A stretch of 64,000 nt of DNA from Patescibacteria group bacterium (GTDB taxonomy: Bacteria; Patescibacteriota; Patescibacteriia; UBA10025; JAHIVO01): NCBI GenBank assembly GCA_041660605.1, contig JBAZWB010000003.1:18680-82679 (forward strand), written 5' to 3'. This document shows positions 20,908-62,680 of this stretch, one piece after another. The position numbers and the translations under genes were made by a program. Position 1 is the stretch's first letter; each line of letters starts with the position of its first letter. The notes below the pieces were generated by a model. The model was not told the origin of the DNA and searched no databases. It saw only the letters and a list, made by a program, of their open reading frames with translations.

Positions 20908-21124
20908 ATTGGCGTAACAAGATTAAGCTTCATCCGATTAAGTAATTGCATGGCTGTAAAATTAGCCTGTTTTAAATTGCTAATATCATATAAAAAAGGC
21001 TATATTATGCGAATTGAGCTTAAAAATAATTCACTGGCAATTATCTAATACTAGCCTACTAATTAACAGCGGAAACGGTAAGGAACCATTCTCCGTTTTT
21101 TTACTGTTTACCCAGCAAATAATT

Positions 21125-22381
21125 ATGAAACGAATAAAATCAATACTATCAAATATCCGCCCGCTTTCGGATAAAGTGCTGGAGCTGACTTTAGTCAGGA
21201 AAAACGGCGCGCCTTTTCCCGAATTCCTGCCCGGGCAATTCGCCACCATTTGCTTCCCCGCCCACTCCCCGCTGAAAGGCGAGCGGTGCTTTTCCATCGC
21301 CAGCTCATCTACCGACCGCCTGGCTATGAAATTCGGCATCCGGATTTCCGGCGCCTACACCAGCGCCCTGCGCGATCTGAAGCCGGGAGACCAGGCGCTA
21401 GTCGGAGGCCCATATGGGCGTTTTACTTTTGATCCCGTACGCGACCGCTCCCTCGTCTTTCTGGCCGGCGGCATCGGTATCACGCCATTTATCAGCATGA
21501 TAAAAACCGCGGCCGACCTTAATCTGGATAACGACCTGACTCTTTTTTACAGTCTCCGCTCCCTTTCGGACATGCCTTATGGCGCGGAACTGGAACGGCT
21601 GAGTAATATGTACCCGCGGTTCCGCGCGGTTTACGCTGTTTCTGATAAAAATATTCCCAAACATCTGCCTGAATATCATCCCGGCCGCCTGAACCGCGAA
21701 TTAATCGTAAAAGTTATGACTGACAGGATCTGGCGGAGCACTTTTTTTCTCTGCGGTCCGCCGCCTTTCATGAAAACAATGAACCAGACTCTGCTCTCGC
21801 TGGGAGTCGCGCCGGAATTTATTATGAGCGAAAAATTCGGAGCCGGATCCAAGGCTTTTATTGAGCGGGGCACCCGGGTGCCGGCTTTTGCCTTTGCCGG
21901 ATGGGGCATTGCCTCGGTCATTGCCTTGGGAATCTTTTTCAGTATTGAGCAATCAAAACGACTGTCACTGGCCTATCATCCGCCAGAGCAACTAAGCCCG
22001 GTAGTGCGGAATATCCCCACGGAAATAGCCGTACCTGGACAGCCAAATCCGCCGGCAACGGAAACAGCCGAAGTGCCGCAGCCAACCGCCATGCCAACTG
22101 CTGAAAATAATAACAAACCAGCGACCCAAACCAGCGCGCCCAAACCCGCGCCAGCGCAAAAAACGGCCACGCCCGTGCCCCAGGCAAAAACTGCCGCGCC
22201 AATAAACGTCAATAAGGCAGCTCCGGCACCCGCTCCTGCGTCTGCGCCAGTTACGCCCCCTCCTGCACCAGTAAACACTGCGCCAGCCGCAACTCCGGCA
22301 CCAACGCCGGCTCCCAAACCAACTCCCGCTCCAGCTCCCGCGCCTGCACCGGCTCCTGCCCCTCGCACAGCAGTTTCCTAA
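21125..22381 (+). CDS. FNR-type FAD/NAD(P)-binding oxidoreductase with a C-terminal TM anchor and an extracytoplasmic Pro/Ala/Thr-rich repeat tail.
   Basis: RCFSIASS (the RxYS FAD motif), GGIGITPF (NAD-binding), CGPPPFM (C-terminal FNR motif). These are followed by a TM helix and (PA)n/PAPT repeats. Confidence 0.65.
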   Translation: MKRIKSILSNIRPLSDKVLELTLVRKNGAPFPEFLPGQFATICFPAHSPLKGERCFSIASSSTDRLAMKFGIRISGAYTSALRDLKPGDQALVGGPYGRFTFDPVRDRSLVFLAGGIGITPFISMIKTAADLNLDNDLTLFYSLRSLSDMPYGAELERLSNMYPRFRAVYAVSDKNIPKHLPEYHPGRLNRELIVKVMTDRIWRSTFFLCGPPPFMKTMNQTLLSLGVAPEFIMSEKFGAGSKAFIERGTRVPAFAFAGWGIASVIALGIFFSIEQSKRLSLAYHPPEQLSPVVRNIPTEIAVPGQPNPPATETAEVPQPTAMPTAENNNKPATQTSAPKPAPAQKTATPVPQAKTAAPINVNKAAPAPAPASAPVTPPPAPVNTAPAATPAPTPAPKPTPAPAPAPAPAPAPRTAVS

Positions 22382-22412
22382 AATTATTTGCCTTAAATAT
22401 CCAAAACAACCC

Positions 22413-23456
22413 ATGAAAAAATATTATTTATTCTCCACATTAATTCTGATTTTTTTAACCGTTGTGCCAATTCGCGCTTTGGCAGAAACAGAAGAATCTG
22501 ATGCAGAGGAACAATCATCCCAGGCAATAAATAATGAATCTGACAGCCAACCCGCTCCTGATGTTAACGATTCAAATGAACCCGCGCCGGTAATTGCACC
22601 AACCCAAGAAACCGCACCTGCCCCCCTGCCAGCGACAAAGGTTGCCCCGCCAGTCCCTGCCAAACAACCAGCTGCCGTGCAAAAAAATAACAACAAAACC
22701 GCCGGTACCGTAAACACCAGCAAGCCCGCACCGGTAAAAGCCGCGCCTGCCCCTGCTTATTCTGCGACAGCCTATGCGACCGAACCAAACCCTGCGCCGG
22801 ATAAAGCGGCGACAGCGGGAATTACCACCATCGCCCTGGTACCTCATACTTTCAATCCCACCCAGATACAAAAACGCCTGACTGATTTCCCCTGGGCCTG
22901 GGTAACCACCCGGGCGGCCGCTACAGTCTCATTTATAATGCTGGCTTTGCTGACCATGACGGGTATTTCTCTGTCCACCGGGCTGCTTTATCGGATATTT
23001 TCGCCGGCTACAGGCTGGTCCGTCCACCGCGCTATCGGCTCCATCCTGCTGATTTCCGTGCTGGTGCATATTTTTTCCCTGCTCTTTGACCAATTCATCG
23101 GCATGAACCTGCTTGATATTCTCGTGCCATTTGCCTCTTCATATCAGCCATTACTAGTCTCATTGGGAATTGTTGGTTTTTATCTTCTGGCGCTGATCCT
23201 CGGTACCTCATTTTATAAAATGGCCACCAAGGCAAAATTCTGGCGGAGAATCCATTACCTCTCCTTCCCCATGTTCGCGCTGATTTTCATTCACAGTATT
23301 TTGCTCGGCACGGATAGCCACCAGCCCCTGATGCAGGCTCTATACTGGGGCTCGGCTGTGCTGGTTATGGGATTTGTTATTTACCGGATTGCCTGGAAAT
23401 TTTACCGTCCGGCAACCGACTATTCCTACCAAAAACGCGAAACAATTTTCGGTTGA
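22413..23456 (+). CDS. Ferric-reductase-like (NOX/FRE/MsrQ-type) bis-heme transmembrane domain protein with a signal peptide and an N-terminal Pro/Ala-rich region.
   Basis: Six TM helices. His pairs are spaced H-x13-H (HRAIGSILLISVLVH) and H-x12-H (HYLSFPMFALIFIH), as in the NOX/ferric-reductase heme ligands. Confidence 0.65.
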   Translation: MKKYYLFSTLILIFLTVVPIRALAETEESDAEEQSSQAINNESDSQPAPDVNDSNEPAPVIAPTQETAPAPLPATKVAPPVPAKQPAAVQKNNNKTAGTVNTSKPAPVKAAPAPAYSATAYATEPNPAPDKAATAGITTIALVPHTFNPTQIQKRLTDFPWAWVTTRAAATVSFIMLALLTMTGISLSTGLLYRIFSPATGWSVHRAIGSILLISVLVHIFSLLFDQFIGMNLLDILVPFASSYQPLLVSLGIVGFYLLALILGTSFYKMATKAKFWRRIHYLSFPMFALIFIHSILLGTDSHQPLMQALYWGSAVLVMGFVIYRIAWKFYRPATDYSYQKRETIFG

Positions 23457-25319: not shown

Positions 25320-26417
25320 ATGCTTAAACTTCTCTGGGCTAATCTAAAAATGACCACTCGCGACAAACAGGCGCTATTCTGGTCGCTGGCTTTCCCGATG
25401 ATGTTCATCATTATTTTCGGCCTGTTTGATTTTACTAAAATGGGCGATGCTAAATACGTGATATTTAACGAATCCAACACCCCGATCTCGTCTAGTTTCC
25501 AGGATGGCCTGAAAAAAATCACCTTCCTGAAAGAGCAGACTGCTCCGGCAACTCTTGATGAAGCGAAAAAACAGCTGAAAAATGGCGACGTGGATCTGAT
25601 TGTCTATATACCTGCTGATTTCAAGCTGCCGGACATGCCCATCACCGCCGATACCCCAAAACCCTCGCCGGTAGAACTCTACTATAGCGAGAGCAATACC
25701 ACTATCAATCAGGTCGCGCTCAGCGTCGTTGATAAATTCGTTGACCAGATGAATATGCAAGTTTCTCAGGCACCGGCCATCTTCAGCTACCAGGCCCAAG
25801 GCGTGCAGGCTAAAAATATCAAATATATAGATATTCTCATGCCCGGCATTCTGGCCATGTCCATCATGACTTCCGCTGTCATCGGCATTTCCACCGGCAT
25901 CAGCCGTTACCGCGAGCAGAAACTTCTGAAACGCCTGTCTGCCACGCCATTGAAAGTCAGAAATTTCCTGATGGCCGAAGTTTTGTCCTATTTAATCATG
26001 AATATTGTGCAGATCACCCTGATTGTACTTCTGGCGCGCATTGCCTTTGGCGTCAAAGTTTATGGCAGCTATCCGCTGATATATTTAATAAGCATCTTCG
26101 GCAGCGTCATCTTCCTGAATCTCGGTTTTGCCGTCGCCGGCTATGCAAAAAATACCAAAACCGCCGAAGCCCTTTCCCAGGTAGTCACCATGCCGATGAT
26201 GTTCTTCTCCGGCGTTTTCTTCTCCACTGAAGCCTTACCGAAAATTATCAGTAAAACAGTGGAGTATCTACCGCTGACTCCGATGATTGAGGCATTGCGG
26301 AAAGTTTCCGTCAACGGCGAAGGTATCCAGACTTTCCTACCTCAGCTGGCTTTCATGGCCGGCTGGGTTATCCTTTCTTTCCTCCTGGCCTGGAAAACTT
26401 TCAAGTTCAAGGATTAA
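25320..26417 (+). CDS. ABC-2 type transporter permease.
   Basis: Six TM helices. ABC-2 topology immediately downstream of the ATPase gene. Confidence 0.75.
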   Translation: MLKLLWANLKMTTRDKQALFWSLAFPMMFIIIFGLFDFTKMGDAKYVIFNESNTPISSSFQDGLKKITFLKEQTAPATLDEAKKQLKNGDVDLIVYIPADFKLPDMPITADTPKPSPVELYYSESNTTINQVALSVVDKFVDQMNMQVSQAPAIFSYQAQGVQAKNIKYIDILMPGILAMSIMTSAVIGISTGISRYREQKLLKRLSATPLKVRNFLMAEVLSYLIMNIVQITLIVLLARIAFGVKVYGSYPLIYLISIFGSVIFLNLGFAVAGYAKNTKTAEALSQVVTMPMMFFSGVFFSTEALPKIISKTVEYLPLTPMIEALRKVSVNGEGIQTFLPQLAFMAGWVILSFLLAWKTFKFKD

Positions 26418-26437
26418 AAAATTAAGTTGCCCGCACT

Positions 26438-26673
26438 CCATCATTATTCTATATAATGATGTTTTTACGCATATCTTTCCCCCCGCTATTATAAAAAATT
26501 TAAAAGAAAAAGGAGCGAGGAGGAATGGTTGCCCATGGGCAACCGCGTTGTACTGTTTGAGCGAACGCAGCGAAGCGAGGAGCGAGTTTACAACGCGGAA
26601 TGACAACGAGCCTGTTTTCGTTAATTTCTTTGTACCGGCGCAGCTCTTTTGCTTCTTTTCTGTTTGCACAGAA
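26438..26673. promoter_or_regulatory. Intergenic region carrying several perfect inverted repeats (candidate operator sites).
   Basis: CATCATTAT-tctat-ATAATGATG, the 18-bp palindrome GGTTGCCCATGGGCAACC, and TTCTGT-ttgc-ACAGAA. Confidence 0.4.
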
Positions 26674-26721
26674 AAGAAGGAACATAATCACATTACTCCC
26701 TTTTTTTGCTATACTAAATAT

Positions 26722-27153
26722 ATGGATAATCCTGATAAAAATCAGCATATCAAAGTCGGCCTGGGCGTCATGTTATTCAAGGATGGCAAAGTGCTGCTCG
26801 GCAAGCGCCGCGGCTCGCATGGCGAAGGCGAATATGCCTGGCCCGGCGGGCATTTGGAATATATGGAATCAATAGCTGACTGTACCAGGCGAGAAGTACG
26901 TGAAGAAACCGGCATGGAAATTACCAATATACGGTTCTTGCGCCTGCTGAACTTAAAAAAATACGCCCCTCAGCATTATGTAGACATTGGCATGATTGCA
27001 GACTGGAAAAGCGGAGAACCGCAGGTGCTGGAACCGAACCGCATAGAATGCTGGGATTGGTACCGCCTGGACAGCCTGCCTGCCCCGCTTTTCGGCACTA
27101 CCGCCAGTTATTTAGAAGCGCTCAAAAGCGGTAAAAACTTTTTTGACTTTTAA
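26722..27153 (+). CDS. NUDIX hydrolase (MutT-like).
   Basis: Nudix box GGHLEYMESIADCTRREVREETGM. This is the first ATG after the upstream permease gene ends. Confidence 0.75.
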   Translation: MDNPDKNQHIKVGLGVMLFKDGKVLLGKRRGSHGEGEYAWPGGHLEYMESIADCTRREVREETGMEITNIRFLRLLNLKKYAPQHYVDIGMIADWKSGEPQVLEPNRIECWDWYRLDSLPAPLFGTTASYLEALKSGKNFFDF

Positions 27154-39646: not shown

Positions 39647-41551
39647 ATGAAAAAGATTATTGCTGGAATTCTTTCGCTGGCTGGTTGTGCCGCCTACGCA
39701 TTCATTCCCATAAAGGCGGTACTTCCTTCGTTTGTCGTCCATACCGCAGAACAGCAACAATCCGTACAAACGCAGAAATATCCGAATACGCCATTCAAGG
39801 ATTTCGGCTCTGATGCTCCATGGGTGCATCGCGCTGGGCTGGCGGCTGATATCCCCGTGATCACGTTCATCAAGGACGCAGACCAGGATTCTGTTCTGCT
39901 GGATTATGTAAGGTTTATTCGCCAAGACACTGGCCAAAGCGTTGGCGTGTATAATCCGGTCCCTGATATTACCTTAGACCAGCCATACTGGTGGCTGCGT
40001 TTGAACGGGCTGACCCCAAACTCATTAGGCCTCGCCTATGGCGATACATTGAAGTTGCGGGTTGAAATTCACTTTCGTGATCAGCTTATTTGGCATAATT
40101 ACACGCAGAATCTTCAAATTAAAATCGCCCAGCCGTGGCCGGAGCTATCAGGGTGGTATCGCGGAGACACGCATCATCATAGCTGGTATACCCAGGATAC
40201 TTTTGATTTTGGGAGTGAATTGGGGTTTGACGCTGATGCCGCCAAAGACATCGGCTTATCATGGGTGGCGCTGACTGAACACTCATATGATGTTACGCAA
40301 TCAGAGTGGCAGGATATGAAGACCCGTACCGCTAGCTTGTCTTCACCGCAATTCCAATTATTGCCGGGACTGGAATTTTCAGCTGATTCAAATAACGTTA
40401 ATGACCCGCTTGACGACCGTATCCACATCGTGGGGCTTGGCCTGCAGAATTGGATAGCTGGTCCGGACATTGTTCCGACGTTTGACGTCAATGCAACACA
40501 GCCAAAAACATTATCTGCCGTATTATCAGATATTGAGGCGCAGAACGGCATTGCCTACACCGCGCATCCCGAAACCAACTCAATTCCGATAGATATATAC
40601 GGTTTTCTGGCAAAATGGACAGATCAAAATTATTCGGAAGCGCAACAGTCCAAAGCATTCATGGGATTGCAGATTTTCAATGAACGCCCCACCTCGGAAA
40701 ACAATACCAGCATAACTACCGATAACATCAATCCTTTCCCCTGGATCCCAAATCCGAATTGGGATACGGAATGGCTGCGTGGCATTGCTAAATACAATTC
40801 TTTGGTTAAGGCGAATTTGACCCGCAAATTATTCATGCTTGGCGGCGCTGATGCCCACGGGGATGCCAATTACAAAACATTTAATGCTCAGGGTGCATTT
40901 AATTTTGCGGCGAATGAAACCGCGTATGGCAGAATTCATACAGCGCTCTATCTGCCTAACGGCCTTACCAATGAATCAATTATTGATGCCTTAAGAAACG
41001 GGCAGGCGATTTCAACCGACGGTCCGCTCGGCGCCTTCGATATTCGCAATAATCAGGATGAAGTTGTCGCCTCAATTGGCGATACGCTGCCATATACTGA
41101 CGGGCTGACCCTGCATATCAATGCGGCCTCAAGCGCTGAATTCGGTAATTTTGATAAAGCGGTCATCCATGTGCTGGCAAAAAATGATGAACGCCACATT
41201 GATATTCCTTTATCAGGGTTGCAGGCGATTGCCTCAAAAGAACTGTCGACATTTGGCATTACTGCGCCATTTGCGGTCTGGGTTGAGACGCGCACGCAAT
41301 CAGGGTATCGCAGTTTCGCAAATCCTATTTGGATTTACCCAGCCCAGGTCTGCGGTGATGCGGATGGTGATGGATCGGTGAATATCGCCGATGCGGTATA
41401 TACCGTTAATTATATTTTTAATCATGGCCCACAGCCGTATTACGGCGATAACAACAATGATGGCATGATTGACATTAGTGATGTGGTTTATCTCGTCAGT
41501 TACATTTTTTCACACGGTCCAGCTCCGCTTTGCGGCCCACTAAAAAACTAA
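39647..41551 (+). CDS. Secreted PHP-domain phosphoesterase with two C-terminal dockerin-type repeats.
   Basis: Signal peptide. PHP motifs GDTHHHS, LTEHSY and AHPE. GDADGDGSVNIADAVYTVNYIF and GDNNNDGMIDISDVVYLVSYIF match the dockerin I repeat. Confidence 0.55.
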   Translation: MKKIIAGILSLAGCAAYAFIPIKAVLPSFVVHTAEQQQSVQTQKYPNTPFKDFGSDAPWVHRAGLAADIPVITFIKDADQDSVLLDYVRFIRQDTGQSVGVYNPVPDITLDQPYWWLRLNGLTPNSLGLAYGDTLKLRVEIHFRDQLIWHNYTQNLQIKIAQPWPELSGWYRGDTHHHSWYTQDTFDFGSELGFDADAAKDIGLSWVALTEHSYDVTQSEWQDMKTRTASLSSPQFQLLPGLEFSADSNNVNDPLDDRIHIVGLGLQNWIAGPDIVPTFDVNATQPKTLSAVLSDIEAQNGIAYTAHPETNSIPIDIYGFLAKWTDQNYSEAQQSKAFMGLQIFNERPTSENNTSITTDNINPFPWIPNPNWDTEWLRGIAKYNSLVKANLTRKLFMLGGADAHGDANYKTFNAQGAFNFAANETAYGRIHTALYLPNGLTNESIIDALRNGQAISTDGPLGAFDIRNNQDEVVASIGDTLPYTDGLTLHINAASSAEFGNFDKAVIHVLAKNDERHIDIPLSGLQAIASKELSTFGITAPFAVWVETRTQSGYRSFANPIWIYPAQVCGDADGDGSVNIADAVYTVNYIFNHGPQPYYGDNNNDGMIDISDVVYLVSYIFSHGPAPLCGPLKN

Positions 41552-47753: not shown

Positions 47754-49409
47754 ATGGGAAAAGGGAACCAAAAAACGTTTCTCGCAATACTAATAGTAAT
47801 ATTTTTATTATCAATAATTTCGATCCTGCTGCCGCGCCCTTCTCTGGCCGCTGAATATCCGTCGGGCTGGGAAATAATACCAGAAGCTTGCCTGGGGAAC
47901 CAGGGAAAAAATGATGCTCCTTGCGATTTGAATTCATTTATTCAGCTTTTTGTTAATCTAGCCGGTATTGCCATAAAAGTCCTGCCCTATATCGCCATGC
48001 TGATGATGATCTGGGCCGGGTTTAATCTGATTATGGCCGGCGGCAACCCCACTAAAATCCAGGAAGGAAAAAAAATGATTACCAGCGTCTTGCTGGGGAT
48101 CATTATTGTCCTCTTTCTGGCCTGGGCATGGGCTAATTTCGTGGTTTTCGCCCTGACCGGCAGCGTCAATGTTTTTCCCGGTTCAATTTTTTCCAAGGAA
48201 TGGTGGGGCGGCGGGAACACCAACCAAATAGAGCCGAATGCCGGCTGCTGCCCGGTGGCCGAACACGGCTGTATAGAAATAACCGAAGACGAATGCACCA
48301 ACCAATACACCAGCCGATACCCAGGCACTAAATGGAGGGCCGGCAGCTGCTATCCTGATGATGCGGCTTTCTGTGATAAGCTTAAAGTCGGCTGTTGTGT
48401 GCCAGAAAATCTGGAAGATGATATTTGCTATACACCTGGAAATAACGGCTGCCTGGACGCTCCGCAAACCAAATGGAACACCAACCAATGCGGCAGCGTC
48501 CAGCAATGCGATCCTTTAAAAATTGTCGGTACGCCACAGCCTGGCAATGGCTGCTGTGTAACGCCCAATAACTGCAGCACTCAAACATTTGGAGCCTGCC
48601 TGGGCACTTATTATTCTCAAAACTGCAGCCAGATCGCTGAATGCGGCCAGGGCTGCTGCGTCGGCAATACTGCCTGCAAAGCAGGAAAAATTGATTGCGA
48701 TGGTGCCTGGCAGAACGTTGCCTGTTCCACCCTGCCCGGCGATTGCCAGGCGGGCTGTTGCATAGACAACGATCCTAATAATATGGATTGTTTCCAATCC
48801 ACTTTTTCTGCCTGCGCCGGCGCGGCTGCAGCTTTTTTCCCAGGAGCAAACTGCGCCTCTGACCATGCCGGAACCTGCGCCCTTGGCTGCTGCCTGGACA
48901 CTTGTACCACCGGCAGGATGAACGATTCGTGCGCCCCTAACATGAGTTACAATAATTATGTCAGCGGTGCCAATGGCTGCGGCGATACTGCTGGCTTCAC
49001 TCCGCCCCAAGCAGCAGGCGGATGTGAATTAGGCTGTGGCCTCGCCAATGGCGCGAGTACCTGTCAGCGTAACGTCAGAAAAAAAGATTTTCCTGCTGAC
49101 CATTTTTGGCAGGATCTTGCCTGTAACGCCGGCGCGGCCAAAACCGCCTGCGAAGAGGGCTGCTGTATTGATACCTCTAATAATTACGTCTGCCTAGACG
49201 GATTCTCCCACCAAGGTTGTATAGATAGAGGCGGATTATTTTCCTTAAACACTTGCGGTGCCAGCCCTCAATGTTCCACAGGCGGTTGCTGCGTGTCAGG
49301 TGGAATATGCACCATGCAGACCTCAACGCAAACACGGGCCTATTGCGAAAATACGGGACCAGGCGGAACCTGGTATCCCCAGGCAGAGTGCTCTTCACAA
49401 GGTTGTTAA
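47754..49409 (+). CDS. TrbC/VirB2-like pilin N-terminal module fused to a ~400-aa Cys-rich extracellular repeat domain (GCC-motif repeats).
   Basis: SD AAGGGGGAG upstream. The N-terminus is paralogous to the two downstream pilin-like ORFs (AGGNPTKI). At least 9 repeats of x-G-C-C-[VIL]-x, for example QGCCVGNTAC, AGCCIDNDPN, LGCCLDTCTT. Confidence 0.5.
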   Translation: MGKGNQKTFLAILIVIFLLSIISILLPRPSLAAEYPSGWEIIPEACLGNQGKNDAPCDLNSFIQLFVNLAGIAIKVLPYIAMLMMIWAGFNLIMAGGNPTKIQEGKKMITSVLLGIIIVLFLAWAWANFVVFALTGSVNVFPGSIFSKEWWGGGNTNQIEPNAGCCPVAEHGCIEITEDECTNQYTSRYPGTKWRAGSCYPDDAAFCDKLKVGCCVPENLEDDICYTPGNNGCLDAPQTKWNTNQCGSVQQCDPLKIVGTPQPGNGCCVTPNNCSTQTFGACLGTYYSQNCSQIAECGQGCCVGNTACKAGKIDCDGAWQNVACSTLPGDCQAGCCIDNDPNNMDCFQSTFSACAGAAAAFFPGANCASDHAGTCALGCCLDTCTTGRMNDSCAPNMSYNNYVSGANGCGDTAGFTPPQAAGGCELGCGLANGASTCQRNVRKKDFPADHFWQDLACNAGAAKTACEEGCCIDTSNNYVCLDGFSHQGCIDRGGLFSLNTCGASPQCSTGGCCVSGGICTMQTSTQTRAYCENTGPGGTWYPQAECSSQGC

Positions 49410-50366: not shown

Positions 50367-52367
50367 ATGCCATTCATTAATGAGTTAAAAACGTTTTTCT
50401 ACAAAAACAATAAAAAAATTCTCTGGACAACGATTGGCCTTTATGTTTTGGTAATTATTATTTTTCTAGTGCAAAAATACCTGTCATACGGCTATAATGC
50501 CATTGATTTAGCCATTTATAATCAGGTGTTTTATAATTCCGCCCACGGGCATTTATTCCAGTTCAGCATCCATCCTCACTCATATCTGGGCGATCATTTT
50601 GAACTTTTTATTATCTTACTGCTTCCGTTTTATTATTTTTTCCAGTCACCCCTGACGCTGCTTTTTTTACAAACCCTGTTTCTGGGCCTGGCCGCCTGGC
50701 CGCTCTATCTACTGGCCAGAACAATATTAAATCGCCACTGGTCACTGATCCTAGCGGCGGCTTTTCTGATTAACCCGTTTATCTGGAACATGAATTTTTT
50801 TGAGTTCCACATACTGCCATTTGCCATTTTCTTTCTGCTATTTGCTTTTTATCATTACAAAAAAAATAATTTTTTACAGTTTTGCTTTATCGCTGGCATC
50901 TCTTTGCTAATCCGCGAGGACGTTTCCTTGGTAATCCTAATGTTTGGAATTCTTGCGCTGATAGAAAAACGAAGCCTTAAGTGGATACTGACGCCGCTGC
51001 TGGCCGGCGGAATTTGGTTTATTACCGCTTTTCAGCTGACAGGATATTTCAACAATTACGGAAGCTATAAATTTCTCGCTTTATACAATTGGCTGGGCGA
51101 GACGCCAGCGGAAATTATAAAAAATTTATTCCTTAATCCTTGGCTGGTGCTAAAAAATATTTTTACCTTTAATAATCTTTTTTCGGTACTTGGTTTGCTG
51201 CTGCCTTTGGCGGCGCTACCGGTTTTCAAATTAAAATACCTGCTGCCGGCCGCCCTGATCTGGATACAGCTTTTCCTCCTGCAGGCCAGCCCGACTATTA
51301 TGCTAGAAACTCATTACGCCGCCCTGATCATCCCTTTTCTATTTATCAGCGCCATCTACGGCTTGCATCGGGTGCTTCAGTCAAAAAACCGCAGTCTCCT
51401 GAAAAAACTGCCGTATTTTCCGTCAAAAACAATCTATTTAACAATTATCATTATTGCTTTCTTGTATTCCTGGGTAACTTTCAGTCCGCTGATTACCGCG
51501 ACCAGAGGTTTCCTCTTTGGCCAGGCGGATAACGCCCGGCAAATAATCGGCGATGAACAAATAAAATTAATTGATAACAACGAATCGGTGGTATCCAGTT
51601 ACGCTTATTTAGCGCCTTTATCCGGCCGTACCCAGCTGTATTCACTGCACTACGCCTTTGAAGGTAAAAAACAGTATTCAGACCAGGCATACAGGATAGA
51701 CCAGCCAATCGACAAAATGATCGTTGATTACCATGATTTCGTCATTTATTACCTCCAATCGCAGGGCCATGGGGTGGAAAGCTTACAGTATTCAACCGGC
51801 GCCGGCCGGATTGCCGGATTGATAGAAAAAAATAACCTGGGTTTGAAAAAAATAATTGATAATACCGCCGTTTATGAAAAAAATTATGCGCCTACGGAAA
51901 AATTAACCGAGGAACTGGACGTAGCTCCGGAAAAAATGATAAAAATAAACCAGTCGGAAGGTGAAAATCTGATCCTACTGGGGTGGGAATATTCAAATGC
52001 CGAGAATCTTTCCGGATACCAAATCCTGCCTTTGAGTCTTTATTGGCAGGCGGCAAATAAAATCGCAGATGATTATAAGCTGAAAATTTCCGTTACCGAT
52101 GAAAAAAATAAAGTCGTGCTGGAAAAATTCTATCCACTGGGCTACGGTTTGCTGCCGACCAGCCAGTGGCCAACCGATAAAATAATTCAGACAAACTATT
52201 GGTTCGCTTTGCCGGAAAAAATGAATCTTGCCGATCACCGCGTCTCGCTGCAAACAGTCAGGCTTGAGGGGTACCTGGATCTTGATAATTTGCGCTCAGC
52301 GGAAACAAGAATTACCAACCAGGAAAACATTGGTGAAGCCCTGGCTCTGCCTCATAACAATTTATAA
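50367..52367 (+). CDS. DUF2079-like polytopic membrane protein (predicted GT-C-type glycosyltransferase) with a large C-terminal extracytoplasmic domain.
   Basis: YNAIDLAIYNQVF..HGHLF..HPHSYLGDHFE resembles the DUF2079 N-terminal signature. Confidence 0.5.
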   Translation: MPFINELKTFFYKNNKKILWTTIGLYVLVIIIFLVQKYLSYGYNAIDLAIYNQVFYNSAHGHLFQFSIHPHSYLGDHFELFIILLLPFYYFFQSPLTLLFLQTLFLGLAAWPLYLLARTILNRHWSLILAAAFLINPFIWNMNFFEFHILPFAIFFLLFAFYHYKKNNFLQFCFIAGISLLIREDVSLVILMFGILALIEKRSLKWILTPLLAGGIWFITAFQLTGYFNNYGSYKFLALYNWLGETPAEIIKNLFLNPWLVLKNIFTFNNLFSVLGLLLPLAALPVFKLKYLLPAALIWIQLFLLQASPTIMLETHYAALIIPFLFISAIYGLHRVLQSKNRSLLKKLPYFPSKTIYLTIIIIAFLYSWVTFSPLITATRGFLFGQADNARQIIGDEQIKLIDNNESVVSSYAYLAPLSGRTQLYSLHYAFEGKKQYSDQAYRIDQPIDKMIVDYHDFVIYYLQSQGHGVESLQYSTGAGRIAGLIEKNNLGLKKIIDNTAVYEKNYAPTEKLTEELDVAPEKMIKINQSEGENLILLGWEYSNAENLSGYQILPLSLYWQAANKIADDYKLKISVTDEKNKVVLEKFYPLGYGLLPTSQWPTDKIIQTNYWFALPEKMNLADHRVSLQTVRLEGYLDLDNLRSAETRITNQENIGEALALPHNNL

Positions 52368-53971
52368 ATTTGTACGTCGGGATTAGTATATACCTCCTGC
52401 AAATATTTTTTTGTGGCGGGATTATAGTCGCCTTTTTCCTTTTCTTTACGGCCGTAATACACGTAGTCAATATTGTTATTTATCAAAAGATCATTTTTGG
52501 CCTGAACCTCCAGGTCGCTCTGCCAAAACCAATCGTTGATCTCATATTTTTCCAGCAGGTCAATCGTCTGCGGGCCGTGCCCGATCCAGACAATCCGACC
52601 CGTGTAAGCGGGAATGAAATTACCCATGTAATAGCTGGAAAAAATAATTTGCTGGCGGCCGACATTCTGCTTCAGCCAATTCATGGCCTCAATTTCCGTC
52701 TTAGTCAGGTAATATGGCAGCGTTTTTTTGTTAGCATACAGCCAGATATCCTGGCCTAAAATTTGAATATTGGTCAGCGGTAAAAATACCAAAGCTCCAA
52801 TAATTAACCCATAAATATAAATATTATTGTTTTTACTTTTGTCATTTATTCTTTTTATCAAATATAAAAAGCCCAGGCCAGCCAGAATAGCGATGGGAAC
52901 ATGCAGCCCCTCTGACATGCGACGCTGGAAGGACACTGGGACATAAATTAACAAGGATGAGCAGAGTAACCAAGAAATGATAAAAATGCCTTTATTATTA
53001 ACTTTTTTAAAAGTTATCCACAGGCCAACCACAACTAGAGGTAATAACAATCCATAACCAATTAAATACATCCAAACGCTCGGCGAAGGCAGAATGTTCT
53101 GCTTCTCCCACTGGCGGGTAACCCAATCAGCTTGTGCTGTTAAAAACAGATACAAGACAATGGGCACGGGTAGGGCACATAAAATCAAATAATGCTTTAC
53201 ATGAGACCAGATAATTTTTTTATTTTTCCAAAAAATGAACAATAAATATACCCCCAGGACGGCGTAAACAGTTGGGCCGTTGAACGGATGAAACCATAAA
53301 AGAAAAAAGGTGGCAATGCCGGCTCCCAGACTATAGCGGATCTGATCTTTTTCGAAAGCCAGCAGCATTAGTAAAAACGTCAGCACTAATAAAGTCAGCG
53401 AGGCAATCAAGTGCGGGGAATGATACAAGGTCAAAAAAGTTACGCTCTCAACGACCCAGGTATCTGTGGGATGCTCATAAAGATTATTTACATCAAATAA
53501 GATAGGATTAAAAAATACGCCCAGGCCGGAAGCGAAAATAATAAAGACTAGAAACCATTTCCTTTTTTGTGGATCTTTAAATAAATACGCTAGAAGCAAA
53601 AAAATGACAAAGATAAAAATCGCCGCCCAGATTGATCTGGCCACGTGCAAAGTCAGAAGATTTGACATTTTGAATATCTTGCCCAGCCAGCCGACCGTCA
53701 GCCATAAAGGATTTGTTAAAATCTCATGCTGAGGCTCGCTGGTATATAAATTTAAAAAAGTGATCCGGCCCTGCTTCGCCTGCTCAATCATCGACATGAA
53801 GACATTGGTATCGCCGGGCGTCAGATAATGCAGGCCGGAGTAAACGGTGCCTGGCGGGGCGGTAAAGTAACCGTATAGATACGGCACGGCGGTTATCAAA
53901 ATAACTCCGGCAATCACCAGAGCAAGAAAAATCCATTCCTTTTTTGATATAGATTTTATTAATTCATTCAT
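52352..53971 (-). CDS. Polytopic membrane protein, GT-C-like glycosyltransferase candidate.
   Basis: More than 10 TM helices and a C-terminal soluble domain. No specific family assigned. Confidence 0.35.
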   Translation of the reverse strand: MNELIKSISKKEWIFLALVIAGVILITAVPYLYGYFTAPPGTVYSGLHYLTPGDTNVFMSMIEQAKQGRITFLNLYTSEPQHEILTNPLWLTVGWLGKIFKMSNLLTLHVARSIWAAIFIFVIFLLLAYLFKDPQKRKWFLVFIIFASGLGVFFNPILFDVNNLYEHPTDTWVVESVTFLTLYHSPHLIASLTLLVLTFLLMLLAFEKDQIRYSLGAGIATFFLLWFHPFNGPTVYAVLGVYLLFIFWKNKKIIWSHVKHYLILCALPVPIVLYLFLTAQADWVTRQWEKQNILPSPSVWMYLIGYGLLLPLVVVGLWITFKKVNNKGIFIISWLLCSSLLIYVPVSFQRRMSEGLHVPIAILAGLGFLYLIKRINDKSKNNNIYIYGLIIGALVFLPLTNIQILGQDIWLYANKKTLPYYLTKTEIEAMNWLKQNVGRQQIIFSSYYMGNFIPAYTGRIVWIGHGPQTIDLLEKYEINDWFWQSDLEVQAKNDLLINNNIDYVYYGRKEKEKGDYNPATKKYLQEVYTNPDVQIYKLL

Positions 53972-53972
53972 T

Positions 53973-55229
53973 CTAAGTATACTGATTTATTTTTTCGCTG
54001 GCAGCGGGCGCTCTGCTAAAATTGATCCCCTTGAATGCCCGGCGGCCGATTTGCCAGATTAATATTACGAAAACAATTGAACGCACTATCACTATCATAG
54101 CAAAGATCGTAGAGCTGTGCCCAATATAATCCCAAACCACCGGAAACTGCAGATAATTCAACAGATCATAAAAGATAAATGCCCCGACTCCCTTCCACCC
54201 GACTGCTGACAGAATAAATAGCGGCAAAATCCATAGGATCCATTGAGGAGAATAATACGGTGAAAACTGTATATAAATGAGGATGAACAGCAGGCTCCAG
54301 GTAATTACCTTCTGCGGAGAAGTAACAAATTTCCGGAATATCTGGTAGCCAATATAGAAAATCAAGGGCAATATTATCTGCAAAAGCATCAGTGCCCAGC
54401 CCAAAGCGCTGATGCCAATATTATAAAGCCAGGCCGGCGTGAAGCTCTGCAATGAGCCCAGATAAACGGCATATGGCGCGCCATAAGCAAACCCCCTGGA
54501 AGACTGGAATAAATAGGGAAACAGGCTGTTGCCCACGCCGGCAAAAATAAACAACACGAGCATCGCAAAGGCAAACGGCGCCAGCGCAGCCAATAACCCT
54601 TTATTCAGATAAAGACGTGTCTTCTGGTAGTTAACCTGATTCAGCCAATAAAGAAAAAATATAGGAAACAATATGATTGCGTAACCCTTGGCCAGAAACG
54701 ACAAGCCCAAAAAAACAAAAGCCCAGGTAAAACGCTTGGAGAACAAAAGCCAGAGAGCTATCTGCACCAGCAGAACCGGCCAGATATCAAAGCGGTTGAT
54801 TATGTAAAATAGTACGGATGGCAATAAAAAAAGCCAGATTTTCGCCGGACTATTCCCCAGCTGCCGACAAATCCGGTAGGTAAGAATAACTACGCCGAGC
54901 GTGGCCAGTAAATTTAACAATATCAAGCCTAATTCATAGCCCAAAAAAGTTTTTGTCAGCAGGGCCGGGATGGCCAGATATAAAACTCCCAGCACCGGAT
55001 ATTCTATTCGCGTCATCTGGTATGGCCACTCTCCCTGCCTGGCAAACCCCATCCGTTCGTAGTAAACTCCCAGTTCCTGATCGTCGCGCACCAGGCTGAT
55101 GCCCTCGTGGGAGGGTGAAGAAAAAAACTTTGACGGCGCAAAGTAGCCAGCCAGCGTCAAACAAATAATCGCCGCTAGTCCGACTCCGATAATCAAAAAA
55201 TATTTGCTGTCCAGCTTTTTCTCGAGCAT
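53973..55229 (-). CDS. Polytopic membrane protein, GT-C-like glycosyltransferase candidate (DUF2029/GT87-like topology).
   Basis: About 12 TM helices with an acidic motif in the first loop. Confidence 0.35.
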   Translation of the reverse strand: MLEKKLDSKYFLIIGVGLAAIICLTLAGYFAPSKFFSSPSHEGISLVRDDQELGVYYERMGFARQGEWPYQMTRIEYPVLGVLYLAIPALLTKTFLGYELGLILLNLLATLGVVILTYRICRQLGNSPAKIWLFLLPSVLFYIINRFDIWPVLLVQIALWLLFSKRFTWAFVFLGLSFLAKGYAIILFPIFFLYWLNQVNYQKTRLYLNKGLLAALAPFAFAMLVLFIFAGVGNSLFPYLFQSSRGFAYGAPYAVYLGSLQSFTPAWLYNIGISALGWALMLLQIILPLIFYIGYQIFRKFVTSPQKVITWSLLFILIYIQFSPYYSPQWILWILPLFILSAVGWKGVGAFIFYDLLNYLQFPVVWDYIGHSSTIFAMIVIVRSIVFVILIWQIGRRAFKGINFSRAPAASEKINQYT

Positions 55230-55237
55230 TGCGTATT

Positions 55238-56812
55238 TTATAACACTTTATAAATCTTTGCTTCCTCATCCTCATAAACCAGCTGAAAACCGGTCGCGCT
55301 CCTGACCAGCTTATCCATGGCATAATGAGTGCTTTCTACAAAAACATAAGAGGAATGAAAAGTTTCGCTGAGCTCCTTATGAAGATCCCCTGACCACCGG
55401 CCGAGAGTAATATCAACTATCGCCTGATAAATATTTTTGTCATATTCATAAGTAAAAGTCGGGTCCAGGCCGATGATATAATAATCTTTGGAATTATGAT
55501 AAAACAATACCGGGAATTCATCCCAACTGGAATGAAAAACAATATCCCCGTCGGCTGAATTTTCTTTCAGCCAGTTGGCGGAGGCGGAAAACCGGTCAAG
55601 CTTGATGCCACCCTGGAAATCCCGGTAAGTCTGCCTGATCTCATGAGTGACGATGGCGGGAAATATTGTAAAAAAGTAAATTACAAACAGGCTGACTACA
55701 ATTTTATGTCTGACAAAATAAGCTAAGAAATCGCGCCAGATTTGCAAAAAATTTATTTTTTTCATGTGCTCATTCAGCGCGAAGGCGACAAAAATTATGG
55801 TGAAAGGCACATAATACTCAACATAACGACGCGACTTCAGGGTGAAAATAAAAAACAAAAGCGCCACCAGAAACATAGTGATGGTTTTCTTGGAGGGTTT
55901 TTTAAAATGATAAATATTAATGGCGATAACGAGTATCAAGAGCGCGCTGACGAAAGCCGTGTTAGCCGTCAGGTCAAAAAATTTATTGGGATACCATTCG
56001 CTGCCCACGGAAATCACCTTCTGGTAATTGACTATCCCGATTTTCACCAGTTGGTGCCAGTAAAAATAAATATTCTGGGGAAAGTTAAAATTTACCAGCA
56101 GACCGGCGGCCACTCCTGCCAAAGAACTCATAAACAAGCGCAGCTCCCGGCCATGGCCAAGCATATTGCGGAAACTTCTGGCACCCTGAATTTTAAGCCC
56201 GTCATAAAGGAAACTGACCAGAAAATAAGCGCCGGAAATAAATAATATCAGGATAAAACCCCCATATGCCCAGACATACAGAAAAGACAGGATAAACAGC
56301 GCAGCCGTACGGTGCTGAAAAAGAAAATGCAGGCCCAAAATCAGAAATAAAATAGAAAAGGTCGGCGCTTTTATCAAATTAATTCGAAAAATAAACGGCA
56401 TGCTCAACAGCAGCACGAACGTAAAAACAAACGCCAGCTTTATCCGATATTTCCTTAAAAACCAGTAGAAAAACAGTATTAGACCGGTATTCAGTATGAT
56501 AGTAGCCAGTTTCGCTCCCTGGATGGGGTTCATAATCCTGGTAAAGGGCACTAAAAAAACATGATAAAGAAAATGCTGGTCAATGTAATTCTGTTTCAGA
56601 ATAGTGTCCTGCAGCCAGGGAAAAGACTTGATAATGCCCTGTTCCGGCAGCAGCAAGGCCATTTTTATATGGTAGAAAGAATCCGGATCAGCTAATGTCG
56701 GTACGGCCTGAAAAAAAGTAAAAAGCACAAATGACGATAATAATAGCACAATATACGAAATTACCACCCTCTCCCTGACCAGCCATTCTTTTATTATTGC
56801 CATTTTTGCCAT
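55238..56812 (-). CDS. Polytopic membrane protein, GT-C-like glycosyltransferase candidate.
   Basis: DPDSFYH lies in the first extracytoplasmic loop. More than 10 TM helices. Confidence 0.35.
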   Translation of the reverse strand: MAKMAIIKEWLVRERVVISYIVLLLSSFVLFTFFQAVPTLADPDSFYHIKMALLLPEQGIIKSFPWLQDTILKQNYIDQHFLYHVFLVPFTRIMNPIQGAKLATIILNTGLILFFYWFLRKYRIKLAFVFTFVLLLSMPFIFRINLIKAPTFSILFLILGLHFLFQHRTAALFILSFLYVWAYGGFILILFISGAYFLVSFLYDGLKIQGARSFRNMLGHGRELRLFMSSLAGVAAGLLVNFNFPQNIYFYWHQLVKIGIVNYQKVISVGSEWYPNKFFDLTANTAFVSALLILVIAINIYHFKKPSKKTITMFLVALLFFIFTLKSRRYVEYYVPFTIIFVAFALNEHMKKINFLQIWRDFLAYFVRHKIVVSLFVIYFFTIFPAIVTHEIRQTYRDFQGGIKLDRFSASANWLKENSADGDIVFHSSWDEFPVLFYHNSKDYYIIGLDPTFTYEYDKNIYQAIVDITLGRWSGDLHKELSETFHSSYVFVESTHYAMDKLVRSATGFQLVYEDEEAKIYKVL

Positions 56813-60101: not shown

Positions 60102-61184
60102 ATGACTACGCCCATAAATATCCAAAAAATAATTTCTACCTCAAAAGAGGTAATCAAAGGATGCGCGCTGGAAAACGGCGCCATTGTTGCCGCCAATACC
60201 GACAAGGCCTATTCCCCGAGAGAAGCAGCTGACTACCGTTATGTCTGGATACGCGACGCCGCTTTCGTCTGCGTGGCGGCTGAATATCTGAAACTGCCGA
60301 TCCAGGAAAACTTTTTCAATTGGGTCAATGATCGGCCGGAAGACTTCCACACCGACAAATTATTATACTCAAATTACTCAACCAACGGCCGTATTGCTAC
60401 CATGGGCAAGCAATTCCAGGCTGACCAGACCGGAATTTTACTTTGGGTCATCCATCATTATTTTAAAAAAGATTTAAAAAAAGCTTTAAAATTCAAAGAA
60501 TTAATCCAGCGTTTAGCGGACGGCCTGGCTTCCCAGTGGGACAAGGACCATTTTGTTACGCCGACTACGGATGTCTGGGAAATGCTAGAAAGGAAAACCT
60601 CCACCCGGCTGAAAAATAATTTTACCTACTCGCTGGCTGCCTGCGTCAGAGGCCTATTCTGCGCTAACGAAATTATTCCCAATCATTTATGGAAAGAAAC
60701 TGCCATGCAGATGACGCAGCAGATTGATGAAGCCTATCAAAAAGAAAAAAAATATTTTTTTCGCAACCAGGGAGTGATCTCCGATCCGAATATTGATGCT
60801 TCAATGCTCGGCCTGGTATACCCCTGTAAAATTTATGAGGCCGACGATGCCAGAATGATAAATACCGTCCAGAAGATCGAAGAAAATATCGTAGTCAAAG
60901 GAGGAGTGCATCGTTTCCAGTTTGATTACTTTGACAGTGAGGGATCAGCCCAGGAAGGCGGCGGCGCCTGGCCGGTATTAAATTGCTGGATGTCTATTTA
61001 CTACGCCATCAAGGGCAATAAAACCAAAGCGCACCAATACTTCGACTGGGTGGTAGAGAGATCAAAAAAATTTAACTACTACCTGCCGGAGCAGTATTTC
61101 GACGATATCCGCGTCGGCATTTATCCTCTGGCCTGGAGCCATGCCATGTTTGTCATCACCGCCCGCCATTTGGGGTATATTTAA
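60102..61184 (+). CDS. Glycoside hydrolase family 15 (glucoamylase/glucodextranase-like).
   Basis: GAIVAANTDKAYSPREAADYRYVWIRDAAFV. Confidence 0.7.
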   Translation: MTTPINIQKIISTSKEVIKGCALENGAIVAANTDKAYSPREAADYRYVWIRDAAFVCVAAEYLKLPIQENFFNWVNDRPEDFHTDKLLYSNYSTNGRIATMGKQFQADQTGILLWVIHHYFKKDLKKALKFKELIQRLADGLASQWDKDHFVTPTTDVWEMLERKTSTRLKNNFTYSLAACVRGLFCANEIIPNHLWKETAMQMTQQIDEAYQKEKKYFFRNQGVISDPNIDASMLGLVYPCKIYEADDARMINTVQKIEENIVVKGGVHRFQFDYFDSEGSAQEGGGAWPVLNCWMSIYYAIKGNKTKAHQYFDWVVERSKKFNYYLPEQYFDDIRVGIYPLAWSHAMFVITARHLGYI

Positions 61185-61189
61185 AATTT

Positions 61190-62680
61190 ATGGTTAAAAT
61201 ATTTCGCATTGCCAGTATTACTTCCGAAGTCAGCCCTTATTCAAAAACTGGCGGCCTGGCCGATGTTACCAAGTCCCTGTCAAAAGCCCTGGCCAGCCTC
61301 GGACACAAGGTTTTTTTGATAACTCCGTATTATAAATTTATCAAAGAGCAAAATTTGAATCTGAAAGAAGCCGCCGTTTTTACCATTACGCTAGGCAAGG
61401 AAAAATACCCTATCTGCATAAAGTACCTTGATTTCAGCGAAAACCTGAAAATTTATTTTATCAATAATGAAAAGCTTTTTGGCTGCCGCGCGCGGGTTTA
61501 CGGATACGATGACGATAATCTGCGCTTCTTTATATTCAATATGGCGGCTCTCCGGCTGCTCGATAGCCAGAATCTGAAGCCTGACATCGTGCATGCCCAC
61601 GACTGGCAAGCCGGCACCGTACCCTATCTGATGAAAAAATACCTCAAACGCTACCCCAGCCTGAAGAAAGCCGCCACTCTTTTTACCATACATAATCTCA
61701 CTTTCCAGTCCTCCGGCGACTGGTGGCGCATACAGGAACATCACAAAGATGACGGTCTGACAGATCCTATTCGCCATCCGAATATCATTAAAACTTTGAA
61801 TTTTACCAAACGAGCCATCATGTACGCGGACGTCATCAATACCGTCAGCGAGCGTTATGCCGAAGAAATTACCACGCCGGAATTTGGCCAGGGGCTGGAT
61901 CGCTGTCTGCGGCACCGAAAAAATAACCTCTATGGCATAATTAACGGCATTGATTATACGGTGCACAATCCTGCCTATGATAATAATATTGAATATAAAT
62001 ATGACTGGAACAGCCTGCGCCGGAAAAAGAAGGACAAGCTGGCCCTGCAAAAAATCGTGGCTCTGGATAGAAACCCCGACATCCCATTAATAGGCGTAGT
62101 CAACCGTTTAACCGAGCAAAAGGGCTTTACTTTGATTATGGAAACGATTGAAACTTTGATGCGCCTACCTTTGCAGATTGTAATCGTCGGGGAGGGTTTT
62201 AAGGAATATGTTGCGTTTTTCAAAAAAGCAGCGCGGAAATACCCGAAAAAATTAGGCATCTACACGCCTTTTACCGAAGCGATGGAATCAAAAGTCTACG
62301 CCGGGTCAGATATGTTCCTGATGCCTTCGCGCTTCGAGCCCTGCGGCATCTCCCAGCTGAAAAGCCTGCGTTACGGTTCCATCCCCATTGTACATGAAAC
62401 CGGCGGGCTGTCGGACACGATTACGAATTTTAATGCAAAAACGCGCAAGGGCAATGGCTTCGTTTTCAGGCGGTTTACTACCATTGATTTCATCATCGCC
62501 CTGACGCGCGCCCTGGAAACCTACAAATACCCCCAAATCTGGGAATATTTAACCTGGCATGCCATGCAGCAGTCATATTCCTGGGAATTGCCGGCAAAAA
62601 AATACATCCAGCTCTTCAATGTGGCCATAAAAAATTTAAAATCAAGGAAAACTAATAAAGAGCTGCCTTATATCAAATAA
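61190..62680 (+). CDS. glgA: Glycogen (starch) synthase.
   Basis: SEVSPYSKTGGLADV and the C-terminal GT-B blocks. Confidence 0.9.
   Translation: MVKIFRIASITSEVSPYSKTGGLADVTKSLSKALASLGHKVFLITPYYKFIKEQNLNLKEAAVFTITLGKEKYPICIKYLDFSENLKIYFINNEKLFGCRARVYGYDDDNLRFFIFNMAALRLLDSQNLKPDIVHAHDWQAGTVPYLMKKYLKRYPSLKKAATLFTIHNLTFQSSGDWWRIQEHHKDDGLTDPIRHPNIIKTLNFTKRAIMYADVINTVSERYAEEITTPEFGQGLDRCLRHRKNNLYGIINGIDYTVHNPAYDNNIEYKYDWNSLRRKKKDKLALQKIVALDRNPDIPLIGVVNRLTEQKGFTLIMETIETLMRLPLQIVIVGEGFKEYVAFFKKAARKYPKKLGIYTPFTEAMESKVYAGSDMFLMPSRFEPCGISQLKSLRYGSIPIVHETGGLSDTITNFNAKTRKGNGFVFRRFTTIDFIIALTRALETYKYPQIWEYLTWHAMQQSYSWELPAKKYIQLFNVAIKNLKSRKTNKELPYIK

Follow-up and report, generated by a model that had tools for sequence, protein, structure and literature searches.

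Positions 39647 to 41551 (forward strand) of a 64,000-nucleotide stretch of contig JBAZWB010000003.1 (hereafter, the window), from an uncultured Patescibacteria bacterium, hold a gene whose 634-residue product combines a CehA/McbA-family metallohydrolase, built around a PHP-like catalytic barrel, with a C-terminal dockerin. We read the product, with moderate confidence in the reading as a whole, as a Sec-exported ester hydrolase that would be held at a surface by a swappable dockerin module; as part of that reading, the gene would encode a stand-alone, four-module enzyme of a member of the Candidate Phyla Radiation (CPR). The modules are, in order, an N-terminal beta-sandwich, the PHP-fold barrel, a C-terminal beta-sandwich, and the C-terminal dockerin. 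The protein belongs to two known families, near the threshold in both cases, and its architecture recurs in databases, where it is already partly named. The original prediction, made from the sequence alone, placed the open reading frame (ORF) exactly where it lies and described a secreted PHP phosphoesterase on a cellulosome-like scaffold. Its observation is confirmed, and its interpretation is supported in part: the PHP fold and the dockerin hold, and the scaffold and the phosphoesterase activity are unsupported. The features of the gene are as follows (aa, amino acid residues).

39647..41551, + strand: whole gene, encoding a 634-aa predicted exported CehA/McbA-family (PHP-like) metallohydrolase with a C-terminal dockerin (ORF listing, database match); stop codon at 41549-41551
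39647..39700, + strand: putative signal peptide, aa 1-18, read from the sequence (MKK, a hydrophobic core, then AYA↓F)
39794..40126, + strand: N-terminal beta-sandwich, aa 50-160, with eight strands (aa 52-160) in the AlphaFold model at a predicted local distance difference test score (pLDDT) of 75-93
40139..41002, + strand: PHP-fold catalytic barrel, aa 165-452 (NF038032 match, conserved ligands, Foldseek)
41003..41341, + strand: C-terminal beta-sandwich, aa 453-565 (AlphaFold pLDDT 89-97), inside the NF038032 match
41351..41536, + strand: dockerin module, aa 569-630 (Pfam Dockerin_1, PDB sequence matches, subtype hidden Markov model)

A CehA/McbA-family body with a PHP-like barrel

The NCBIfam profile NF038032 (CehA/McbA family metallohydrolase) aligns to aa 169-563 over profile positions 1-314 of 315 (E=1e-21) and is matched by 70/70 homologues (best E=1.3e-46); NCBI has given the family name to orthologues P0002 and P0004. 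The N-terminal beta-sandwich, which the original prediction had recognized as a beta-rich region, is conserved together with the catalytic body. Homologues of the body align from approximately aa 42, and an alignment of 15 sequences shows no variation at N47, D56, D77, and D86. The full-length AlphaFold model has a predicted template modeling score (pTM) of 0.75. N-terminal beta-sandwich, barrel, and C-terminal beta-sandwich together make up the body typical of the CehA/McbA metallohydrolase family.

Within this body, the motifs first read as PHP-like, HHH (aa 176-178), TEH (aa 210-212), and AHPE (aa 306-309), fall on columns that are invariant across the 70 homologues. Among the putative metal ligands, H176, H178, H212, E243, H260, and H307 are invariant in this set, D402 and H404 are at least 90% conserved, and E187 (also at least 90%) is a candidate ninth ligand only. 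The target carries the PHP ligand pattern (HxH, H, E, H, H, DxH), with E187 as the sole candidate for the Asp/His/Glu that follows strand 1. In profile alignments of the catalytic region, DxHxH, TDH, PGxE, vHxL, AAHP, and GGxDAHG coincide with the PHP ligand motifs of TM0559 (2anu; E=0.005), YcdX (1m65), and BAD_1165 (3e0f). These residues would form a complete His/Asp/Glu metal site that is probably tri-nuclear.

When the cropped barrel is compared with the PDB in Foldseek, the top 12 matches are all PHP proteins (probability 0.97-1.00) and include BAD_1165 (3e0f/3o0f), RNase AM (9etk/7ug9), Pol III alpha, and PolX. E-values range from 4e-7 to 1.5e-6 for the top four and are at most 1e-3 for the top seven. 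With the whole model, the PolC PHP domain (3f2c) is the only probability-1.00 match over the barrel. A glycoside hydrolase, suggested by whole-model matches to glycosidases of "sandwich-barrel-sandwich" form, was rejected at a TM-score of approximately 0.17 and a root-mean-square deviation of 18-26 Å. Predicted fold and metal-ligand motifs thus support placement of the catalytic core in the PHP superfamily. The Pfam PHP profile (PF02811), which the original prediction had named as the family to search, matches neither the target at E≤1 nor any of the 70 homologues at E≤0.01, and NF038032 is the correct family. Weaker PHP links are present among the 70 homologues in NF005928 "PHP domain-containing protein" (17/70), TrlF (7/70), and PHP_C (2/70).

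Relative to the PHP phosphoesterases BAD_1165 (3e0f), RNase AM/YciV (9etk/7ug9), YcdX (1m65), TM0559 (2anu), and the PHP domain of Pol III alpha, the target is alike in fold and in the order and identity of the metal-ligand motifs. It differs in sequence (10-23% identity, and the missing PF02811 match shared with its 70 homologues); in large, mostly low-pLDDT insertions at aa 262-300, 310-335, and 345-395; in the two beta-sandwiches that flank the barrel; and in its predicted extracellular location, whereas the phosphoesterases are cytoplasmic.

CehA (Rhizobium sp. AC100) and McbA (Pseudomonas), which hydrolyze carbaryl and carbofuran, resemble the target in their end-to-end NF038032 match over barrel and C-terminal beta-sandwich, in export (predicted for the target), and in an HxH pair with further essential histidines in a PHP-like domain. 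The HxH is located at residue 313 in CehA and at 176 in the target, whose N-terminal region is much shorter; the dockerin tail is a feature of the target; and the characterized enzymes stem from a pesticide-degrading plasmid rather than an uncultured bacterium. CehA and McbA have been described as exported carbamate-ester hydrolases with essential histidines, including the HxH pair, in a predicted PHP-like domain; substrates of the characterized family members are carbaryl, carbofuran, oxamyl, and the natural carbamate physostigmine, and no activity is known beyond CehA, McbA, and their near-identical variants (PMC8292978). Of the label "PHP phosphoesterase", then, the fold and the ligand motifs stand, but the activity is unsupported; the only characterized family members cleave carbamate esters.

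Predicted export

The protein begins with a basic and then hydrophobic segment, MKK-IIAGILSLAGCAAYA, that agrees with the secreted protein originally described and that we likewise read as a signal peptide. In the AlphaFold model, aa 2-18 form a helix and aa 19-49 a disordered stretch. A comparable basic and hydrophobic start is present in all orthologues, and a signal-like N-terminus in all homologues. The putative signal peptide holds both a lipobox-like LAGC (aa 11-14; 39677-39688) and a classical signal-peptidase I site, AYA↓F (aa 16-18; 39692-39700). Because of the former, the cleavage type is ambiguous (AYA↓F or LAG↓C). The lipobox Cys is not kept in orthologues, so lipoprotein status is doubtful.

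A dockerin of non-cellulosomal subtype

By its sequence, the tail is a true relative of Dockerin_1 modules and belongs to a non-cellulosomal subtype. It comprises two 28-residue repeats that are 61% identical, each with a Ca2+ loop and a YxxxYIFxHGPxP helix. The 12-residue calcium loops, DADGDGSVNIAD (aa 571-582; 41357-41392) and DNNNDGMIDISD (aa 601-612; 41447-41482), lie 30 residues apart, feature D/N at positions 1, 3, 5, 9, and 12, and are each followed by xVYxVxYIFxHG; the tail would be expected to bind calcium through them. No further calcium-loop motif of this kind occurs in the six frames of the window. Pfam Dockerin_1 (PF00404) aligns to aa 570-620 over profile positions 2-56 of 57 (E=0.0013), and the whole protein has eight sequence matches in the PDB, every one a dockerin (best 5lxv_B, E=5.7e-4). 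When a hidden Markov model of the subtype is built without the target and its two orthologues, the tail obtains 96.3 bits (E=7.8e-29), compared to a maximum of 12.3 bits among 2000 composition-preserving shuffles. This shuffle test, together with the uniform PDB matches, rules out a generic EF-hand and the D/N-rich low-complexity repeat that the original prediction had raised against itself.

An exhaustive HMMER search with the whole protein covered 1.84 billion representatives and returned 1343 hits at E≤1e-10; dockerin-only proteins are among them, and the count is thus an upper limit for the hydrolase family. The matches form two separate populations, one of which covers only the last ~65 residues, often as 3-14 tandem copies per protein. 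All of the tail-only relatives scanned (42/42) are strong Pfam Dockerin_1 proteins (best E=1e-104), and their other domains include Cohesin (3), subtilase (6), and FG-GAP repeats (7). Six proteins of approximately 1100 aa (P0032, P0033, P0037, P0056, P0059, and P0081) contain 12-14 dockerin calcium loops of this subtype in tandem. Cellulosomes follow a one-dockerin-per-enzyme rule, from which such tandem-copy proteins differ.

The subtype signature is xxxCGDANGDGxxxIxDxVYLINYIFxGGPxPxPxxxGDxNxDGxVDxSDxVYLIxYIFxGGPAPxC. A profile search with 34 modules, which replaced a tail-only word-index search that had given a single candidate, recovered 439 proteins, nearly all with PF00404 and named "dockerin type I repeat-containing protein". 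Zixibacteria are their main source, and Planctomycetota and Thorarchaeota contribute some. The best 80 matches in species-representative genomes come from Zixibacteriota, Ignavibacteria, Planctomycetota, Terriglobales, and unclassified metagenome-assembled genomes, often with many per genome; none of these 80 has Patescibacteria in its title.

The target module is bracketed by C569 and C630. Across the subtype, one Cys precedes the conserved Gly (position -1) and another follows the final GPxP, and these flanking Cys co-occur (odds ratio 3.2 over 210 modules that are not independent). Published dockerin clasps join positions -1 to -3 with the C-terminus (PMC3821032). Because C569 and C630 occupy such positions and flanking Cys co-occur, a disulfide is a reasonable proposal, and it probably clasps the two ends of the dockerin.

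Like the type I dockerins of clostridial and ruminococcal cellulosomes (PF00404), the tail features two tandem F-hand segments with D/N at the five loop positions, occupies ~60 aa at the C-terminus of a (predicted) secreted enzyme, and has dockerins as its best PDB sequence matches. It differs in falling below the Pfam gathering threshold, in a helix signature of its own (YxxNYIFxxGPxP), in its bracketing Cys, and in the lack of an associated cohesin, scaffoldin, or carbohydrate-active module within the sequence searched. The inter-repeat linker has 2 residues, compared to ~5 in the subtype consensus. Of the two "canonical" dockerin I segments originally described, therefore, both loops are real and related to Dockerin_1, but their subtype (YxxNYIFxGGPxP, Cys-bracketed) is non-cellulosomal. 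Zixibacteria, Ignavibacteria, and the FCB group have non-cellulosomal "dockerin type I repeat-containing proteins" with the same subtype, the same Cys bracketing, and 45-63% identity. In those genomes, the copies are numerous, frequently 3-14 in one protein, and are borne by peptidases, FG-GAP proteins, and cohesin-bearing proteins, whereas the target has a single module, joined to a PHP-like hydrolase, and the subtype seems to be rare in its lineage.

Exchange of the C-terminal module

Across this hydrolase family, the C-terminal module is swappable between lineages and can be a type IX secretion system (T9SS) tail, one of several dockerin subtypes, or absent. Among six Patescibacteria orthologues (47-55% identity), P0001-3 carry the dockerin and P0004-6 end a few residues after a conserved NPIW motif; P0007 and later, more distant homologues have a T9SS sorting domain at the same junction. 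Of the 70 homologues, 21-29 end in Por_Secre_tail and six in Dockerin_1, and the fusion, which had been thought unusual, is not so within the family. The T9SS cargo proteins of Bacteroidota (Por_Secre_tail, PF18962/TIGR04183) share the enzyme body and bear a ~70-aa C-terminal module directly after NPIW, but the sorting domain has another fold and mechanism than the dockerin and is an export and anchoring signal of diderm bacteria. No T9SS is known from Patescibacteria.

Other dockerin-bearing homologues (P0023, P0067, P0097, and P0039) use different, more canonical subtypes, which argues that the enzyme-dockerin fusion arose several times. Within P0001-3, the tail (57% identity) has diverged as much as the body (52-55%), and the fusion is therefore ancestral to this sub-clade and maintained. 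PF00404 is a precomputed annotation on orthologue P0003, and orthologues are annotated as either "CehA/McbA family metallohydrolase" or "dockerin type I domain-containing protein".

The gene and its neighborhood

Public databases already list an identical protein, labelled hypothetical and assigned to a Patescibacteria group bacterium; the contigs that encode it reach 185 kb. Since this protein and the same neighboring genes recur in independent sequencing runs, the gene is real and not an assembly artefact; a chimera is likewise ruled out by this recurrence and by an architecture common to two orthologues (52-55% identity).

The gene stands alone, with a divergent acyl-carrier-protein gene upstream and a convergent OPT transporter gene downstream; P-type ATPase, DedA, and PGA_cap genes are nearby. 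Across the five loci compared, no neighbor is conserved. A promoter and terminator scan gave nothing above chance on the + strand. In agreement with the original prediction, Pfam searches find no cohesin among the 50 window ORFs of at least 150 aa, and ten unannotated ORFs have none at E≤1; there is also no cohesin within 10 kb on either side of the dockerin-bearing orthologues P0002 and P0003. The window holds no second dockerin, and the target protein no carbohydrate-active module.

A sortase gene (PF04203; locus L003, 9296-9964) lies 36 bp upstream of P0002 (10001-11869) on the same strand. No sortase adjoins the window gene, P0003, or any further orthologue that was examined, and an LPXTG motif is missing from these proteins; for both reasons, we do not take it as evidence.

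Several other regions of the window deserve mention. Three consecutive large ORFs (539, 418, and 524 aa; 52352-56812, - strand) have no Pfam family at E≤0.001 and only a faint DUF7657 match at E≤1, and may be an uncharacterized operon. A 551-aa protein (47754-49409, + strand), encoded directly after a solute-binding protein gene, weakly matches the type IV secretion system pilin family (PF18895) with a sub-threshold E=1.9e-4. The urocanase gene (6356-8404, - strand) occupies the stretch of highest GC content (0.55, versus ~0.45 elsewhere) and may be laterally acquired. A glycogen or alpha-glucan cluster (60102-63901, + strand) encodes a GH15 glucoamylase-like protein, a GT5 starch/glycogen synthase, and a GH57 protein in a row. 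An FAD/NAD-binding oxidoreductase is paired with a ferric-reductase-like membrane protein (21014-23456, + strand) at a raised GC content of 0.50 and a strongly negative GC skew (-0.18). Finally, ABC-2 permease and NUDIX ORFs (25320-26417 and 26287-27153, + strand) overlap by ~130 nt; because the NUDIX domain starts only at residue 157, the TTG start of this ORF was probably called too far upstream.

Proposed mechanism and alternative explanations

We propose that the signal peptide would carry the protein across the membrane, where calcium would fold the dockerin and the C569-C630 disulfide would probably clasp its ends. The dockerin would then retain the enzyme on a surface-exposed partner, either of its own cell or of a neighboring one, and so take the place that the T9SS sorting domain has in Bacteroidota homologues. 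Water activated at the metal centre would hydrolyze an ester bond of some extracellular substrate, which would serve nutrient scavenging. Our first guess for this bond, weakly favored, is a phosphoester; a carbamate or carboxyl ester is the documented alternative.

Several points weigh against this proposal. The signal peptide was judged by eye, and both family matches are near misses: NF038032 scores 77.7 bits, 2.3 bits short of the NCBI cut-off of 80, and Dockerin_1 scores 19.4 bits, just under its gathering threshold of 22.9. The Dockerin_1 search suggested in the original prediction thus succeeded in its coverage of the profile but not in its score. TM-scores of the cropped barrel to PHP structures are only 0.43-0.47, or 0.39-0.47 over the full-length alignments of the top 12 matches, and the cropped catalytic model has a mean pLDDT of 61, compared to mostly 80-94 for the ordered parts of this region in the full model. 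Structure prediction, also suggested at the outset, recovers the PHP barrel in the Foldseek comparison, but the dockerin tail has a pLDDT below 50 and its helices (aa 580-593 and 613-616) are of low confidence; because only 3/15 alignment rows have the tail, the model is uninformative there. No docking partner was found in the window or near P0002 and P0003, and the five gene neighborhoods give no hint of substrate. Three close orthologues are without any tail, and tethering is therefore not essential to the enzyme.

The nature of the partner separates the alternatives on the dockerin. The cellulosome-like complex of the original prediction, in which another locus of the same genome would encode a scaffoldin whose cohesins receive the dockerin, strikes us as unlikely. 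Although the tail is a true Dockerin_1 relative, Cohesin domains in three of the 42 same-subtype proteins imply that cognate cohesins exist somewhere, and the window covers 64 kb of a ~185-kb contig, the cohesin searches of the window ORFs and of the two orthologous loci were negative, the target dockerin motif is the only one in the window, no carbohydrate-active module or conserved neighbor accompanies it, and, among species-representative genomes, not one of the top 80 tail matches has Patescibacteria in its title. Solitary non-cellulosomal dockerins are also reportedly a recognized phenomenon, as Peer et al. are said to have described in 2009. A dockerin that acts without cohesin, as an adhesin to a glycan or foreign cell surface or as a calcium-dependent stabilizer, with the enzyme released or stuck to its substrate, is a less remote option, if still a doubtful one. 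It would accord with the failure to find cohesin in the window or near P0002 and P0003, and with subtype proteins of 3-14 tandem copies that break the cellulosomal pattern. Non-cellulosomal dockerins of ultra-small or episymbiotic bacteria have already been noted in earlier publications, which read them as adhesins or glycan-targeting modules; examples are those of Omnitrophota (PMC10066038; bioRxiv 10.1101/2023.11.21.568195) and an essential dockerin-domain envelope protein of a cultured Saccharibacterium (PMC10633639). On cohesin-dockerin systems in Patescibacteria, we found only passing mentions in the literature. Against this explanation, there is no direct evidence that this subtype binds anything but cohesin, some of its proteins carry cohesins, and the two repeats, 61% identical and with intact loop ligands, resemble those of cohesin-binding dockerins with a dual binding mode. 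Least probable, in our view, is docking across species, whereby an episymbiotic Patescibacteria cell would plug its secreted hydrolase into the surface cohesin system of another organism, such as a member of the Zixibacteria or Ignavibacteria, and scavenge nucleotides or phosphate from that host or neighbor. It derives from the skewed taxonomic distribution of the subtype, which is rare in Patescibacteria but has undergone massive expansion in Zixibacteria and Ignavibacteria; the cohesins on some subtype proteins, the failure to find one belonging to the target, and a tail kept since the common ancestor of three orthologues are compatible with it.

A separate alternative concerns the bond that is cleaved. 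The target may be a carbamate or carboxyl-ester hydrolase like CehA and McbA, detoxifying natural carbamates, for example, and not a phosphoesterase or nuclease; we regard this as possible, if on balance improbable. The only characterized NF038032 members hydrolyze carbaryl, carbofuran, oxamyl, and physostigmine (PMC8292978), and the target matches the profile end to end. However, it is remote from the profile core (77.7 bits, versus homologues up to E=1.3e-46), and the nearest solved folds are phosphoesterases and nucleases, namely BAD_1165 and the 5'-3' exoribonuclease RNase AM. The family is very large in uncultured bacteria (at most the 1343 hits above, dockerin-only proteins included), and we suspect pesticide hydrolysis to be a recent side activity. 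Three residues invariant in the 15-sequence alignment (R172, N345, and R347) might also suit an anionic substrate. We retain the surface-held ester hydrolase as our working proposal, with the phosphoester as the first guess.

Implications

Two cautions for annotation follow from this gene: a dockerin match does not equal a cellulosome, and "PHP" motifs do not equal a phosphoesterase. The practical value of the finding is modest, but the protein is a clean candidate for identifying the natural substrate of its family and the binding targets of non-cellulosomal dockerins. More broadly, a widespread and biochemically almost unexplored family of exported PHP-like metallohydrolases, with more than 1000 sequence clusters in the whole-protein search (a count that includes dockerin-only proteins), reaches into Patescibacteria, and its C-terminal surface-retention or sorting module has been exchanged between lineages. 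With their tiny genomes, Patescibacteria rely on other cells; for this reason, their few secreted enzymes, of which this would be one, are candidates for a role in nutrient gain or host interaction.

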